The position numbers were made by a program. A stretch of 64,000 bases of DNA. Source: an uncultured Pseudomonadota bacterium (lineage in GTDB: Bacteria; Babelota; Babeliae; Babelales; JAUPTZ01). This document shows positions 21,001 to 27,000 of the stretch, in pieces. Every line of letters starts with the position of its first letter. Position 1 is the first letter of the stretch. The stretch covers positions 62,001-126,000 of the forward strand of contig CAYSBJ010000001.1 of assembly GCA_964429275.1 (NCBI GenBank). The letters run 5' to 3'.

Positions 21001-24000
21001 TCATATGCTTCTCTTGCAGTGCAAACCAGCGCTCATCTGATTCCTGACGACGCTTTTCCAAGTATGGTATTACATACTTAACAATCGCGCCATACGCTTT
21101 AATACAAAAAAGAACAAAGAAAGAAAGATTTGTCGCAATACCTATATAAAACCAATAACTAGCTTCCTGCATGCAGCGAATCCTCCAGTTTCTTCCTAAA
21201 TGCGGAGAGCTCTTCCGATGAAACAGGCCGCAATATAACGCGAGCAGTACTCTGCGGATTAAGCGCGATTTTTACAGCGTCATTAGCTAACTGGACCTTA
21301 ACATCCTGCTGAAATTGAACCAATTGCAATGCCTTCTCCGACTGAAAGTTGTCCACATCGACTTGTTTGAGAGTTATTTCTTCATTCAGACGACGCTCTT
21401 CGGCTTTCTGCTTAATAAGCGCATCGATTACCGGATCAAATACCATACGACGCAAAGCATAATAAACAACTAAAAAGTTTATTACTTGGATCAGTAGCGT
21501 AAGATTAAACTCTATGAGGCTTTTCATGATGCACTATCTTTTTTCTGTGCTCTACGCACGAAACAACAGCATCAACGCGATAATAAACGCATAGATGGAT
21601 GATGTTTCGGCTGTTATTAATGCAAACATCATTGTACTGAAGATCGCCCCATAGCTTCCAGGGTTGCGGCTGATACTTTCACAAGCCTTACCTCCAATAT
21701 ACCCTTGACCAAGCGACGGTCCAAGCGCTCCAATGCCCATGCATATCCCAGCACTAAGGTTTGCCGCTACTTTTGCCCAGTTTATTGCTTCCATTTCCAT
21801 ATATGCTCCTGCTGTTAAAGTAACATTCAATATATTAGATGTTACCAGTAATGGAGCATAGACTAAGACGCGACCAATCAGTTGTCAAATAATTAGCAAA
21901 TTCTTCGCAAGATGGCGGTAAGAACAATCTTTTTAGCTTGTCGTAAGTACTGCTCGAGCAGGCGCCGCTTCGCTGCCCACAAATGCGAGCGGCAATAGGT
22001 GCAACAGATAGTCCTGCCGGTCAATAAGCAGCGCACCAAGCCGCAATCCTTCGACTATAACAGCATCAACGTCAAACAAAGCCTTATGAGACGCATAGCC
22101 AGGCTGATTACGCTCAAGCCCTAGTGCATCAACACCAACAAGAGCGACTTTACATGCTGCCAAGTACTCAGCCGCTGATGCACCAAGATAAACCTCGTGC
22201 GGGTTGTATGGTCCATACGACGAGGCCAAACTATTGCGCGTTTTTAACAAAATTCGCTGGCCGGGCTGAATATTAAATGCAACCAAGTCTCTTTCTTCGA
22301 TCGACTCCCCAGTAAGAGAGGTCAAATCAAGCACGCGACAAGGACCATTCATTTTTTCAAGAGAAAGCTGCTCAATCGTTTTACCACCGGGGATAAAATG
22401 AGAGGGAGCGTCTACATGAGTACCAGTATGCATATGAAGACGTAGACATAAAGAATCCTGAACCCCATGGGTCGCTACCGTTCGAAGCTCTTGGACAACG
22501 AGGGGATGCCTATCCTTATACGAAACAGTCCTCGCGGCAAGCGGCCAACTAATATCGATTATAACGCTCATTTTTCATCTTTTTCGATTTGTTCAACAGC
22601 GTGGCCACCAAAAGCATTCCGCAGAAGTGCCACCAATTTAGTCGCATAGTTTCCACCACTTTCACGTGACCAAGAACGCACCTTAAGTGCCTCTGCAATC
22701 ACCGGCAAAGGAACATTCCGCCGCTTTGCTTCATGCACCGCCCAGCGACCTGTACCATTTTCATGAATTACACCACTTGTTTGGGAAATATTTTCTGGAC
22801 GCTCAAGCACCCCAACCAACAGCTCAAGAAGCCGAGAGCGGATAATTGAACCATGCTGCCATAACTTCGCCAGCTCCGCTGCGTTCAGGGCAGGATACTG
22901 CCCTTCATAAAGAAGATGAAAGCCTTCGGCATACGCCTGCAAAACCCCATACTCTATAGCATTATGAACCATTTTTACGTAATGGCCTGCCCCGACGGGA
23001 CCAACGTGTGCATAACCGTTTACGGCTGCAAAAGAGCGCAGTACATGTTCAATGTACGGCACTACTTCACTGGCAGCCCCAAGCATAACGCAATAACCAT
23101 CCTTTGCACCATGGACGCCGCCAGAAACGCCGGCATCACTTAAAATAATACCAGAACTCATGAGAGCCTCGTGTCGCCGAAGCGTATCACTATACAAGCT
23201 GTTGCCACAGTCAACCACATACAAAGCCGTCCCGCAATCGAAAGCCGTTTTTGCAATCACCAAAGAGGCTAATACTTCATCGACTATATCACCCGCCGGC
23301 ACTAGCAATAGAATACGACTTGTCGCGTTAATAAGAGCTGCGTACGAATCAACGCGGTGCACGCCAGCTGGCGCTTTCGCTGAAGAAGATCGATCATAGC
23401 CAAACACGACATACCCCGCAGCGACTAATCGCTCTGCAATACCACTTCCCATGCGGCCAAGGCCGATGACGCCGACCGCCTCTTTAACGGCGCTCACAGG
23501 ATCCATTCCATGTTGTTACGCTTACAGAACGCCTCCAGCTCCTTTGGTCCGTTCGTCTGCGGAGCATAGGAATGCACTGGCAATTTTTGCGCGACTAGGG
23601 CATCAGTGATCCGCCACATTTCGGCAATTTCTTCGAAGCTAACAAAGAGTGTGCGGTCTCCTTGCACAATAAGCTCCAATACTCGACCATACGCATCCAA
23701 CTGATCACGTGAATCTGGGTTCGGCCCCTCTGTAACGTGTACTGCTTCAGCAACCTCTTCCCGCCCTATTACTAAGGCAACCGAGTTATCACTAAACGCC
23801 ACGACTGCCATCGGCATATCTTCTATTCGATCCGGGTCATTTGATTTAAATTTTACGTAAATAACCAGTTTTTGCGTCGCCACCATCTTGCCAGTCTTCA
23901 CAAAGATCGCAACCTCATTCCAACGAGGAGCATCTACTGCCACGCGAGCAGCAATAAAGGTTTCAGTCATCGATCCGGAAGCAACAAAAGATTCTTTTTC

Positions 24001-27000
24001 ATATCCCTCATACTGCCCAAGAACCGCATCGGCAATCGACAAGCGAGCCAACACCTTTTTCTTTTCGTGACACAAGTCTGGATAATCAAGCACTGGGCTA
24101 TCCACCAATAACAACGCCACCGCTTGAAGCACATGGTTTTGCACCATATCCTGTATGGCGCCAGCCCCATCATAATATCGACCACGTAGATTGATGCCAC
24201 TCTTCTCATTCATAATAACCTGAATAGACTCAATGTTGCCGTTTACCCATAACTCATTAAACGCTTCATCAAGCATTCGCGCCACAGGAAAAGCCACCAC
24301 CGCTTTTTTGGCAAGGAAATGATCCACACGATAAATTTGATTTTCCGGCAACAAAGCACGAATATCTTTTTCTATCTTCAGCGCATCGTCACCACTGCGC
24401 CCAAATGGTTTTTCATACGCGATTCGATGCCAAAATGCTTCATCAGCATCTTGGCGATGCATCACGCCATACTTCAAGGCGTACTTAGTAATAGGAACAA
24501 AAAATTCAGAGCTTGTCGCCAGATACAACAACCGAGATTCAGAATCATCAAGCAGCGCACTGAGCTTCTTATAGAGCTTTGCATCAGCAAAATCACCGTG
24601 CACATACTGTGTTTTTTCGGAAAGAACCTGCCATGCCTTTTCATCCAACTCGCGAACGTGCGGCCGCGCCCGCTCAAGCATCTCTTGCGCGGTTAATTCA
24701 TCGTGCGCTACACCCACAAGACGATAATCGCCACCGCTCGTATGAATAAGATCGTGAATTGCCGGAATAAGTTTACGTGCGGCCAAGTCGCCGGTAGCGC
24801 CGAAAAGTATGATTGTACAAGGGTTCATGAACGTTCCTTAAAATCGTTAACTATCTAATGGCTCCAGTTCTACCGTATTCTCAGAAATATTGCGAGCTCT
24901 CTTTGACGGCGAAGGCGCTGCGGCATTCAGATCCGGTGGCAACCGAAAATCAATCCCTGACGATACAGTAGCACTATCATCGCAAGCTCTTTTAACCAGA
25001 GATAGAGAAGCAGCATCCGAAACCGGAAGAGCATGAGAGACTAACGTTGGCGATAGCACATCCACCTCTTTTAAGCATTCAAGCCGCTTGCCAGACAAAG
25101 ATCGGTCAGGATTCGGAGAAGACGAAGAATCTGAATCTGACGAAGAATCTGAATCTGACGAAAAATCTGAATCTGACGAGGAATCGGACTCAGACAAGAG
25201 AGCTGCAGATTTAGGAAATTTAGAACTTATCCCAAAAAGATCTTGTATGAATGGAGTTATTGCCGTTCCTAAGACAGATTTATCGGCATCTTTAGACACA
25301 GCATAATCCGAAAAAAATTTGGAAAATGCATACAATGCACGTAAGTCATTCCCATAAATAAAATTAAATCTCCGTCTCTTAAGTTTCTTTAAATGCCACC
25401 CAAGCAGATCGTTTTCTTCGTCAAGACGGATTCCATCCACAAGAAAGCAGGATGGAACCATAACTACATAGATATCGGGCGCTATACACACACTCAGCAA
25501 TTTCTCACCCAAGCCATTACTTTCCAGATCTAGCGGTCGCCAGTCTCCATCAGAAAAATTCAAAATGAACGTAGTGTAATCATAAGCCCACATTATCGTC
25601 CCCACTGAGAACCCGTGTTCAGAAAGTGACCATAGTTTGACCGGGTCTTCGTCGTCTACATAGGTATCAACAACCCCACAGGATCCATCTTTGAGCCGAC
25701 TATGCGGCCGAAAAAGATACCCTTCTTGTTTTTTTCCATTGAAACAAAAAATAGCATGGTTCTTGTAGCCAGGAATCGTAGCCAGCCGATTGTCAACTGC
25801 ACACAAAGACGCACTAAAAAAAACCGAGAAAACACCCACCAATAAAAATCTTAAAAAACTCACTCGATCCTCCGAAAATAAAAATATTAATCGGCCGGGC
25901 AGCGACGTGAAAAATCTACCCAAAAGGGTTAGGGGACTCTTAATGCTGAATAAGAGAATAACGGCAATTGAGACTATTTAGGGAGGGGCTTGTTTTGTTC
26001 ACACTACTGCATGAGGGAATAACATCATACACGTTTGCCTCAAAAAAACCTATGGTTACGAGCATTCTGTTCTTTTTACAAAAAAACGCCCCCCATTATT
26101 ACGCCTCGTCTTACGCTTCTGGATCACCAACAGATAAGTCTTTACAAGCCTTTTTAGATGGCGATGGTTCAACATCATCTAAGATCAACGGCACCTCGGA
26201 AACCGATGTCGGCGTTGATATCTCACCCTCAGTTAGGCCAGCCGCCTCAGGACTGGATGGCAACCGCCGAGGAATTGGTGAAAATGCAGATCCTGCTGCT
26301 CCAAAAGAAACAGCGCCGGTCGTACTTACTGGCGCTAAACCAAAATAGGACCTAACACGAGGTGTAATAGCATACTTGACCTGATTAACGAATTCAGAAA
26401 GAGGCTCACACGACAACATACTTTTAATTTCCCCGCTGAATTCTGGATTGCAATAATAGGCAAATGCACCAAAAGCGCTCCATGCGGTATACAAGCAAAC
26501 GCTTGGAGACACAGGTAACAATGTCGTGCTAAACTCCACCGAGTTATGCGCTTCTTTGTAATCAGGATTCAGATGCTCATACTGAGCAATAAATTCGTCA
26601 GAATAGAGCGGGTTAACCGAATCCTTTTCAGCACGTTCAGAATTTGCTACAAGCTCTTCCAAAAGCCACTCTCTATGAGAAAGGCTAGGGTCTGAAGGCT
26701 TGCCCGACACCTGCATAATACGCGGAATAGTAACAACATAAATATTACGAAAGACTTGAATACTTGGCAACGGGTAGCCCCAAAAATTTTCTTTAGCCAG
26801 AACGCCTAGCCGCCACTTTCCATACTCAAACCGCAAAAAGAAAGAAGTATCACCAACACACGTAAACCCTGTAGTTTTCCAGCCATTGGGGCTGCTAAGC
26901 GTGAAGGGCGTAACAGTTACTTCTGAGATATCATAAACTGCATTTCCATGCACATCAGGATGAAACATAAAACTTTTTTGAGTAGCCGTATTAATACAAA

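Follow-up and report, generated by a model that had tools for sequence, protein, structure and literature searches.

The window analyzed here, a 64-kb stretch of DNA, carries zwf, gnd, and a gene for a cyclase-family metal hydrolase on the minus strand. The zwf gene (23494..24828) encodes a glucose-6-phosphate dehydrogenase of 444 amino acids with the Pfam domains G6PD_N (124.9 bits) and G6PD_C (173.8 bits), which scored 294 bits against TIGR00871, below the cut-off of 400.6. A short-form 6-phosphogluconate dehydrogenase with the Pfam domains NAD_binding_2 and 6PGD is encoded by gnd (22568..23506) and comprises 312 amino acids, or 309 when counted from the GTG at 23497. This protein exceeded the cut-off of NF007161 (293 bits, cut-off 271) and stayed below that of TIGR00872, gnd_rel (254 bits, cut-off 297). 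The third gene (21933..22571) encodes a 212-amino-acid metal hydrolase of the KynB fold, the candidate 6-phosphogluconolactonase. Open reading frames and Pfam domains agree with the positions and the strand given for the three genes in the genome-wide survey's note. The same note had claimed a 4-base overlap at each junction. This is exact for the junction of gnd with the cyclase gene, where stop and start codons share an ATGA (22568..22571); the zwf end and the gnd start (23494..23506) overlap by 13 nt if gnd begins at the ATG, and by 4 nt (GTGA) only if it begins at the GTG. By their mutual overlap, the three genes form one operon-like unit. As context, the ATP synthase c subunit gene atpE (21552..21830, minus strand, Pfam ATP-synt_C) lies 102 nt downstream of the cyclase gene on the same strand, and further atp genes follow. 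It is also a neighbor of the cyclase gene in three genomes of the same genus and in one Babeliales MAG.

The 212-residue protein matched Pfam Cyclase (PF04199) with 81 bits (cut-off 23.1) over profile positions 1–141 of 142. No other family was found in the Pfam scan, in particular neither PF01182 nor PF10282. The best NCBIfam match was the arylformamidase model TIGR03035, with 102.5 bits and thus below the equivalog cut-off of 223.05. An AF2 model was obtained with a pLDDT of 95.9, and Foldseek aligned this predicted fold to 3KRV, 8HMO, 1R61, and KynB structures with TM values of 0.85–0.89. By sequence, 8HMO (E 2.9e-39) and 1R61 (E 1.6e-37) were the closest solved relatives. The translation reads H-M-H-T-G-T-H-V-D-A-P-S-H at residues 46–58, so the metal motif HTGTHVD is intact, as noted earlier. 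The metal-binding and catalytic motif H48-x-G-T-H52-x-D54-x-P-x-H58 (22398..22430, minus strand) is conserved to at least 0.95 in 115 rows of the zwf-linked cyclase clade, termed clade A below, and also in the KynB clade. H48, H52, D54, and H58 align with His50, His54, Asp56, and His60 of Bacillus anthracis KynB (BaKynB). A second pair of metal ligands (22050..22088, minus strand) consists of H162 (22086–22088) and E174 (22050–22052), conserved to 0.99 and 1.00 in clade A and corresponding to His161 and Glu173 of BaKynB. All six metal-binding and catalytic residues of KynB (H48, H52, D54, H162, E174, and H58) are therefore kept.

The genome (1.208 Mb in 8 contigs, 97.95% complete) was searched in six frames for enzyme families bearing on the pathway. 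None of the known lactonase families PF01182 (Pgl), PF10282 (YbhE), and PF08450 (SMP30) was detected, in line with the survey's claim that no known type of 6-phosphogluconolactonase is present. Tryptophan dioxygenase (PF03301) was likewise missing, again as reported. The six-frame searches also returned no transketolase, ribulose-phosphate epimerase, RpiA, or RpiB. No hexose-phosphate transporter scored above cut-off, and a weak test gave no match for glk or pgi. The second cyclase paralogue mentioned in the survey was located on contig 3.

Among 261 Babelales genomes, 155 hold a strong orthologue of the cyclase, and 153 of these also hold zwf. The orthologue thus occurs in 153 of 186 zwf-positive vs. 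2 of 75 zwf-negative genomes; both this sample and the Bacillales sample described below contain related genomes, and Fisher values overstate independence. The gnd gene lies immediately upstream of the cyclase gene, in the order zwf-gnd-cyc, in 24 of the best 29 non-self Babelales loci. In G024, a closed Babelales genome with neither zwf nor gnd, the orthologue is retained as part of a glk-pgi-cyc cluster. No clade-A gene and no recognizable Pgl or YbhE type were found in 33 of the 186 zwf-positive genomes, so that the step can proceed without the cyclase in some relatives. At seven zwf-gnd loci of such clade-A-less genomes, no lactonase-like neighbor was seen. PF01182 matches occurred in 10 of the 261 genomes. 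All of them are NagB-like open reading frames of 440–791 amino acids with a PIG-L-type motif and were rejected as Pgl on these grounds.

The linkage extends beyond this order. Of the best 80 cross-phylum loci, drawn from contigs of one genome per species, 61 have zwf (50) or gnd (11) as the immediately preceding gene in the same orientation. A further 10 have zwf or gnd within 6 kb, and 9 have neither. These loci stem from Babeliales, many Bacillota, Patescibacteria, Mycoplasmatota, and others, and the order is conserved at 40–45% identity across phyla, in both zwf-gnd-cyc and gnd-zwf-cyc arrangements. A four-member Bacillota subclade adjoins genes for sulfatase-domain proteins, and zwf was not seen nearby. 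In Planococcus, the clade gene has RuMP genes on one side and a HAD phosphatase gene on the other.

The relation to known lactonases was explored in 121 Bacillales genomes, with a score of at least 300 bits defining a full-length YbhE/YkgB-type enzyme. Among the 94 zwf-positive genomes, 51 carry clade A only, 38 the YbhE/YkgB type only, 5 both, and none neither; clade A was found in 0 of the 27 zwf-negative genomes. Nearly all Bacillales clade-A genes (54 of 56) follow zwf in the same orientation at a distance of 23–585 nt. Of 66 Clostridiales genomes that were scored, five have clade A; each of the five is zwf-positive, with the clade-A gene 6–183 nt after zwf. The sixth zwf-positive Clostridiales genome has no cyclase match, but a YbhE-type lactonase at 431.8 bits. 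None of these six genomes gave a DevB-type match above cut-off, and no known lactonase type scored above cut-off in any of five free-living Bacillota genomes with zwf-cyc. Clade A and the YbhE-type lactonase are therefore complementary among zwf-positive Bacillales (94/94) and Clostridiales (6/6). The survey had cautioned that near-pairs make up only 3% of the genomes holding both families. This low share is explained by the composition of Pfam Cyclase, which mixes clade A with KynB and other paralogues.

In the tree, a branch with an SH-aLRT support of 95 parts 116 clade-A rows from the KynB clade. The 212-residue protein falls inside clade A, beside rows from the same genus and a Gnd fusion. 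Five of eight KynB-clade Bacillales members examined lie directly after kynureninase, and such neighbors were seen only in the KynB clade. Many Bacillales genomes carry members of both clades. The genuine kynurenine formamidases form a kynureninase-linked clade apart from clade A. Full-length Gnd-cyclase fusions were found in two 90% clusters (P0127; P0177/P0274), and P0211 is a cyclase-glucose dehydrogenase fusion within clade A; each fusion was observed on a single short metagenome contig or a handful of them. The form P0214 with a "Zwf tail" probably represents a gene-call artefact.

Residue conservation was compared between 115 clade-A and 13 KynB-clade rows, and three clade-specific segments, all on the minus strand, were identified in the alignment. 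Y18-K19 (22515..22520), predicted pocket residues, are conserved to 0.98 and 0.90 in clade A vs. W and P (each 13/13) in the KynB clade. N113-S114 (22230..22235) are conserved to 1.00 and 0.98 vs. S (11/13) and W (12/13). The segment L150-G-L-E153-R154-x-Q156 (22104..22124) takes the place of P-S-V-P-L-x-S. The B. anthracis KynB paper describes Trp20 as a hydrophobic wall of the active site and Ser149 as contacting the formyl group. In clade A, Trp20 is exchanged for Tyr18 (with Lys19 beside it), Ser149 for Gly, and Leu158 for His. The 212-residue protein departs from the clade in having Tyr for His159 and Glu for Phe126; it has seven of the eight clade residues Y18, K19, N113, S114, E153, R154, Q156, and H159. 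The hydrophobic KynB walls (Trp20 and Leu158) and Ser149 are nevertheless absent from it, with Tyr18, Tyr159, and Gly151 at these positions; G151 is the residue aligned with Ser149. The comparison suggests that in the predicted pocket of clade A hydrophobic KynB residues are exchanged for polar or basic ones, with the metal ligands retained.

Based on comparative genomics and sequence, we consider it likely that clade A represents a third type of 6-phosphogluconolactonase, one that depends on a metal. The survey's proposal of the cyclase as the missing lactonase gains support from the cross-phylum linkage, the complementarity with YbhE, the separation from KynB, the pocket changes, and the Gnd fusions, all of which point to this assignment at the level of genes and sequences. 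In the proposed route, Zwf would oxidize glucose-6-phosphate to 6-phospho-D-glucono-1,5-lactone, the cyclase-family hydrolase would open the lactone ring to give 6-phosphogluconate, and Gnd would decarboxylate the latter to ribulose-5-phosphate. The His/His/Asp/His/Glu metal site may activate a hydroxide for attack on the lactone carbonyl, and the polar and basic residues replacing the hydrophobic walls of the formamidase would bind the hydroxyl groups of the sugar and its 6-phosphate. Substrate and reaction of clade A are what we infer here, together with its phosphate-binding residues. In the organism itself, the unit would be a stand-alone three-enzyme module yielding two reduced nicotinamide cofactors per glucose-6-phosphate, with host glucose-6-phosphate perhaps as its input. 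The destination of ribulose-5-phosphate is in question because no downstream pentose-phosphate enzymes were found in the genome.

Three other readings have to be weighed. Clade A might hydrolyze a wider or another range of lactones or esters linked to the oxidative branch, acting for instance on the dead-end gamma-lactone, on lactone adducts, or as a general aldonolactonase, rather than as the main delta-lactone hydrolase. Such a role would suit the fusion to glucose dehydrogenase, which yields unphosphorylated gluconolactone, the gene retained without zwf in G024, the 33 zwf-positive Babelales genomes that manage without clade A, and the five Bacillales genomes that carry it in addition to the YbhE type. 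The either/or pattern with the YbhE-type enzyme (94/94 and 6/6) fits a common main role, however, and clade A is missing from all 27 zwf-negative Bacillales genomes; we regard this reading as unlikely. A function unrelated to the pathway, such as a phosphatase or a non-catalytic, OpcA-like partner of Zwf, with the gene order due to descent or co-expression only, appears very unlikely to us. A phosphotriesterase does belong to the cyclase family, and the Planococcus gene has a HAD phosphatase gene beside it, but the order is retained across phyla in two gene arrangements, the catalytic metal site is invariant, and inheritance alone leaves the complementarity with a known lactonase unexplained.

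Public sources label relatives of the protein "arylformamidase", and a true kynurenine formamidase would agree with TIGR03035 as the best NCBIfam match and with the shared fold and metal ligands. The score of 102.5 against a cut-off of 223, the genome's lack of tryptophan dioxygenase, the assignment of kynureninase-linked proteins to the other clade, which co-occurs with clade A in many Bacillales genomes, and the exchange of Trp20, Leu158, and Ser149 make this function extremely improbable.

We found no publication tying the cyclase family to 6-phosphogluconolactonase. According to a report on a Geobacillus metabolic model, the gene for this enzyme was not found and spontaneous hydrolysis was assumed; recent flux work on E. 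coli indicates that intracellular spontaneous hydrolysis is no substitute for Pgl. In its wider form, the lactonase assignment implies that the cyclase/KynB fold holds a third, metal-dependent class of 6-phosphogluconolactonases, already crystallized as 1R61, 3KRV, and 8HMO. This class would be the main form in Babelales. It would also be present in about half of the zwf-positive Bacillales sampled (56 of 94) and in five of the six zwf-positive Clostridiales sampled, and at loci of Patescibacteria and Mycoplasmatota it comes after zwf or gnd; the fusion to glucose dehydrogenase suggests that some members may be general aldonolactonases. We hold this to be probably correct. If so, a third non-homologous enzyme family would serve the 6-phosphogluconolactone step, the public annotation "arylformamidase / cyclase family protein" of the relatives would be corrected, and metabolic models of many Bacillota, Dependentiae, and Patescibacteria would be repaired. 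It would also close the "no pgl gene" gap of Geobacillus, assign a role to three crystal structures of so far unassigned function, and illustrate the remodeling of a formamidase pocket to accept a phosphosugar.

The three structures, 8HMO (Bacillus smithii, Mn-bound) and 1R61 and 3KRV (Geobacillus stearothermophilus), match the protein best in both sequence and fold, aligning over the full length with TM values of 0.86–0.89 at only 33–40% identity in the Foldseek alignments. In the alignments they carry clade-A motifs such as K-T-K-N-S and L-G-I-E-R-x-Q, and all three are proteins of Bacillota, where clade A comes after zwf. The KynB paper notes little or no biochemical data for "metal-dependent hydrolases" of this kind. 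KynB itself (TIGR03035; 4CO9, 4COG, and 4COB) shares the fold, the His/His/Asp/His/Glu metal site, and the catalytic His, but belongs to the separate kynureninase-linked clade and has a hydrophobic pocket (Trp20, Leu158), which is polar or basic in clade A. Pgl/DevB (PF01182, TIGR01198) has the same proposed reaction and operon partners; its fold is unrelated to that of the cyclase, and the enzyme needs no metal. It is missing from the genome, and no bona fide form was found in the 261 Babelales genomes. The beta-propeller enzymes of the YbhE/YkgB type (PF10282) also share the proposed reaction with an unrelated fold and alternate with clade A in zwf-positive Bacillales and Clostridiales; by the listed coordinates their genes, unlike those of clade A, usually do not adjoin zwf. 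According to the literature on the cyclase family, its members hydrolyze esters and, in the case of isatin hydrolase, a cyclic amide. This Mn-dependent enzyme (Pfam Cyclase) is described as opening a five-membered cyclic amide by a metal-activated water and is the nearest chemical analogue to lactone opening, although it shares only ~18% identity, is longer (~260 amino acids), and acts on an aromatic substrate.

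The candidate 6-phosphogluconolactonase is a 212-aa protein encoded on the minus strand at 21933–22571, an ORF assigned to Pfam Cyclase (PF04199) with 81 bits against a cut-off of 23.1. Ahead of it on the same strand lie the ORFs for glucose-6-phosphate dehydrogenase (zwf, 23494–24828, 444 aa, G6PD_N and G6PD_C) and short-form 6-phosphogluconate dehydrogenase (gnd, 22568–23506, 312 aa, NAD_binding_2 and 6PGD). The gnd stop and the cyclase start have an ATGA in common. The overlap of zwf and gnd amounts to 13 nt for the longest gnd ORF and to 4 nt with a GTG start at 23497. Upstream of zwf, a gap of 18 nt containing AAGGAA is preceded by an ORF without a Pfam family, and 102 nt separate the cyclase gene from atpE. 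As consensus promoter and terminator scans of 18000–27500 were no richer than shuffles (11 sites vs 15.0, and 10 vs 9.3, respectively), nothing was inferred on transcription units or transcript ends.

The genes directly after the cyclase gene, at 18578–21830 (minus strand), encode F-type ATP synthase components (c subunit, two b-like ORFs, a delta-like ORF, and alpha). Three genomes of the same genus and one Babeliales MAG (L004–L006, L043) share this cyclase-atpE junction. On the other side of the locus, two minus-strand ORFs of 358 and 357 aa (24847–25923 and 26111–27184) are identical over their ~29 N-terminal residues and divergent beyond, which suggests a tandem pair from a family of secreted or membrane-anchored proteins. 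The 358-aa ORF, which matches no Pfam family, contains a tract rich in Ser and Asp.

The assembly (1,207,998 bases, 8 contigs, 97.95% complete) was searched in six frames for related pathway families, with matches in 2 to 13 of 14 reference genomes as controls. Neither the Pgl fold (PF01182), the YbhE lactonase (PF10282), nor SMP30/gluconolactonase (PF08450) was found in this genome, and tryptophan 2,3-dioxygenase gave no match. Similarly, transketolase, ribulose-phosphate epimerase, RpiA, and RpiB were without a match. Glucokinase and phosphoglucose isomerase of a relative, used as tblastn queries in what is a weak test, did not match, and the hexose-phosphate transporter family reached only 18 bits, under its cut-off. 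With these downstream pentose-phosphate, glucokinase/isomerase, and transporter searches empty, the oxidative branch stands alone in this genome.

A search of 261 Babelales genomes with the window protein divided the positive genomes in two: 155 had a strong match (E at most 5.8e-27), and in 24 others the sole match was weak and of paralogue level. The zwf gene was present in 186 genomes and the 6PGD domain in 179. Nearly all genomes with the strong orthologue also carried zwf (153/155) and gnd (154/155). Conversely, the orthologue occurred in 153 of 186 zwf-positive genomes vs 2 of 75 zwf-negative ones. In 24 of the best 29 non-self loci gnd was immediately upstream, always in the order zwf-gnd-cyclase, with protein identities down to ~45%. 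The two known lactonase types were sought in the same sample. PF01182 gave 10 matches, all in NagB-like ORFs of 440–791 aa with no zwf or gnd match nearby; they were rejected as Pgl owing to this likeness and a PIG-L-type motif, which was assigned by eye from sequence. PF10282 matched in 116 of the 261 genomes, in each case partially, with at most 105 bits and mostly within very long repeat ORFs; these were rejected as lactonases because genuine lactonases of Bacillales reach 300 bits or more. As the former matches are NagB-like and the latter partial, no recognised lactonase type is evident in Babelales.

The PF01182 ORFs (L033–L042, from G118, G119, G136, G138–G140, G154–G156, and G180) begin with a NagB-like (Glucosamine_iso) part; the next region carries an H-T-[AS]-P-H-x-D-D motif and resembles PIG-L/LmbE deacetylase. 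They may be fused amino-sugar catabolic enzymes. Many ORFs of 1000–2985 aa with partial beta-propeller 'Lactonase' repeats occur in G009, G010, G148–G151, and other Babelales, up to 29 matches in a single genome, and look like repeat-protein expansions rather than enzymes.

Some Babelales are exceptions that count against the lactonase reading. The orthologue was missing from 33 of the 186 zwf-positive genomes, and inspection of seven of their zwf-gnd loci revealed no lactonase-like neighbour. In one cyclase-less relative (L142, G032:C3, 3339–4802, minus strand) gnd overlaps at its end with a pyridine nucleotide-disulphide oxidoreductase gene, an arrangement that hints at reducing power feeding thiol redox defence. 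The one-contig genome G024 lacks both zwf and gnd and has kept the orthologue in a glucokinase-phosphoglucose isomerase-cyclase cluster (L138, G024:C1:107249–119854, at 5393–9007). A DJ-1/PfpI gene lies beside this cluster, and a DJ-1/PfpI fragment also adjoins the cyclase gene in L045.

A scan with one genome per species, based on a 10-row alignment, yielded 584 relatives; the analysis retained the best 80 loci. These belonged to Babeliales/TM6, many Bacillota (Bacillus, Sutcliffiella, Brevibacillus, Thermoactinomyces, Thermolongibacillus, Clostridium, Desulfotruncus, and others), Patescibacteria, Izemoplasmatales, Haloplasmataceae, and a few others. In 61 of the 80, zwf (50) or gnd (11) immediately preceded the cyclase gene on its strand, no more than 700 nt away; in the remainder, one of them was further upstream (7), elsewhere in the locus (3), or absent (9, two of which were cut off upstream). 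The order was mostly (gnd)-zwf-cyclase in Bacillota and zwf-gnd-cyclase in Babeliales and Patescibacteria, so the hydrolase gene stays with the pair while the internal order of the pair changes.

Other settings were also observed, the first two of which are exceptions that count against the lactonase reading. A four-row Bacillota subclade adjoins sulfatase-domain genes. In two Planococcus loci (L078, 4626–7505; L106, 4436–7436) the clade gene is not placed after zwf; it comes after OMPdecase/HUMPS-family and SIS-domain genes, apparently for hexulose-phosphate synthase and isomerase, and precedes a Cof-type HAD phosphatase. This arrangement fits a cyclic oxidative ribulose-monophosphate route without proving it. 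In five Brevibacillus loci (L095, L096, L103, L110, L111) a second cyclase gene, of the kynurenine formamidase (KynB) clade, lies within ~2.5 kb upstream of zwf, directly so in L096 and L103, and the zwf-linked clade gene lies at least ~1 kb downstream of zwf or gnd, so that the same pathway genes are flanked by both clades.

The distribution relative to a known lactonase was examined in a sample of 121 Bacillales genomes. The clade profile separated a top group (at least 240 bits), present in 56 genomes, from a second group at ~145–192 bits. A full-length YbhE/YkgB-type lactonase (at least 300 bits) was found in 45 genomes and zwf in 94. Among the 94 zwf-positive genomes, 51 had the clade protein only, 38 the YbhE type only, five both, and none neither; among the 27 zwf-negative genomes, two had the YbhE type only and 25 neither, with no genome in the other two classes. 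As Bacillales genomes are related, Fisher values overstate the independence of these counts; the empty 'neither' class of the zwf-positive genomes is independent of those values. All but two of the 56 clade genes are located on the zwf strand, 23–585 nt downstream of that gene; the two others lie ~2 kb from it on the opposite strand. Additionally, five free-living Bacillota genomes with zwf-cyclase had neither known lactonase type over cut-off. Six of 66 Clostridiales genomes scored by both searches possessed zwf. The clade protein (at least 246 bits) was found in exactly five of the 66, all zwf-positive and without a full-length YbhE type, with the gene 6–183 nt after zwf. The sixth zwf-positive genome had no cyclase-family match and a full-length YbhE-type lactonase (431.8 bits). 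None of the six had a DevB-type match over cut-off.

An all-against-all search of the representatives revealed four fused forms: a 515-aa short-Gnd plus Cyclase protein (P0127), a second cluster of this kind with a partial (P0177) and a full member (P0274, 512-aa Gnd plus Cyclase), and a 594-aa Cyclase plus glucose dehydrogenase protein (P0211) with a cyclase domain that belongs to the same clade. As a single short contig was the only source of each, the fusions are supporting and not decisive. A further candidate, P0214 ('G6PD_C tail + Cyclase'), was rejected as its cluster also holds 207-aa and 275-aa forms; the Zwf-tail form is probably a gene-call artefact.

Two alternatives were considered within the cyclase family. 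The window protein could be a kynurenine formamidase, whose fold it shares: an AlphaFold model from a 42-row alignment (pLDDT 95.9, pTM 0.91) retrieved 3KRV, 8HMO, and 1R61 as top Foldseek ranks (TM 0.86–0.89), with KynB, isatin hydrolases, and a cyclase-phosphotriesterase at lower ranks. By sequence, the best solved relatives were 8HMO (E 2.9e-39; titled a manganese complex, from Bacillus smithii) and 1R61/3KRV (E 1.6e-37), which are unassigned 'metal-dependent hydrolases', and the kynurenine formamidases 4CZ1 and 4CO9 scored well behind (E 1.9e-20). The NCBIfam arylformamidase equivalog gave 102.5 bits, far under its cut-off of 223. In a tree of 130 rows rooted on the second cyclase of the own genome, a branch with SH-aLRT 95 set 116 rows apart from the KynB rows: 96 with zwf or gnd nearby, four fusion domains, the G024 protein, and 15 without zwf or gnd in view. 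Both clades occur together in many Bacillales genomes, and genes of the second Bacillales group directly follow kynureninase in five of eight loci examined; this group is the real KynB. Owing to the separate clade, the sub-cut-off score, and altered pocket positions, kynurenine formamidase was rejected. Alternatively, the second cyclase of the own genome, on contig 3, could be the pathway enzyme. It shares 29% identity with the window protein in a tblastn segment, it is surrounded by genes for a nuclease/phosphatase-family protein, a release factor, and TilS, and Babelales genomes with only weak, paralogue-level matches comprise seven with and 17 without zwf. Given the low identity, the unrelated neighbours, and weak matches that do not track zwf, this paralogue was rejected as well.

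The KynB paper names His50, His54, Asp56, His161, and Glu173 as zinc ligands, His60 as catalytic, and Trp20, Leu158, Val40, and Val42 as hydrophobic walls, and places Ser149 close to the formyl group. Across 115 clade rows, conservation is at least 0.99 at each of the six metal and catalytic positions, and the window protein retains all of them (H48, H52, D54, H58, H162, and E174). At other positions the clades differ (window numbering): Tyr18 replaces Trp, Lys19 replaces Pro, Asn113-Ser114 replaces Ser-Trp, Leu150-Gly-Ile-Glu153-Arg154-x-Gln156 replaces Pro-Ser-Val-Pro-Leu-x-Ser, and His159 (Tyr in the window protein) replaces Leu. Judged from the alignment, the clade-specific residues would line the pocket, and the hydrophobic, aromatic pocket of KynB would have given way to a polar and basic one, a change that a phosphosugar would require.

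Based on the gene order and co-occurrence, the either/or pattern relative to a known lactonase, the separate clade with its conserved site, and the fusions, the window protein is probably a 6-phosphogluconolactonase, for which we infer the following substrate and chemistry. Zwf would release 6-phospho-D-glucono-1,5-lactone. Probably acting as a dimer that binds Mn2+ or Zn2+, as its solved relatives do, the hydrolase would open the lactone ring by attack of a metal-bound hydroxide on C1, with His58 as proton shuttle, as proposed for KynB. Gnd would then produce ribulose-5-phosphate and CO2. If this reading is true, the protein represents a new, non-homologous form of a known enzyme activity.

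According to the Geobacillus LC300 model paper, no 6-phosphogluconolactonase gene was identified, as in earlier reports, and the reaction was taken as spontaneous. An E. coli preprint concludes that loss of Pgl is not compensated by intracellular non-enzymatic hydrolysis; it gives 3.97 per hour at 37 °C for the spontaneous reaction and notes that strain BL21 has no pgl. Searches of full texts, a collection without patents and most subscription journals, retrieved no paper tying the cyclase family to the 6-phosphogluconolactone step; an earlier description of the link may therefore exist. In these searches, no paper combined the cyclase family name with glucose-6-phosphate dehydrogenase, the function of 1R61, 3KRV, or 8HMO was not treated outside the KynB paper, and queries on Dependentiae and the pathway gave nothing useful.

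A word-indexed search for longer forms returned a single 412-aa protein with Cyclase as its sole Pfam family, which is probably a tandem form, and four family-2 glycosyltransferase fusions of more distant cyclase-family members (P0270–P0273). As this search did not recover the Gnd fusions, it says little on their frequency. Tandem double-cyclase proteins are represented by P0131 and P0191 according to Pfam, and probably by P0269. Furthermore, a tandem pair of cyclase genes adjoins gnd at G208:C16:5892–7165.
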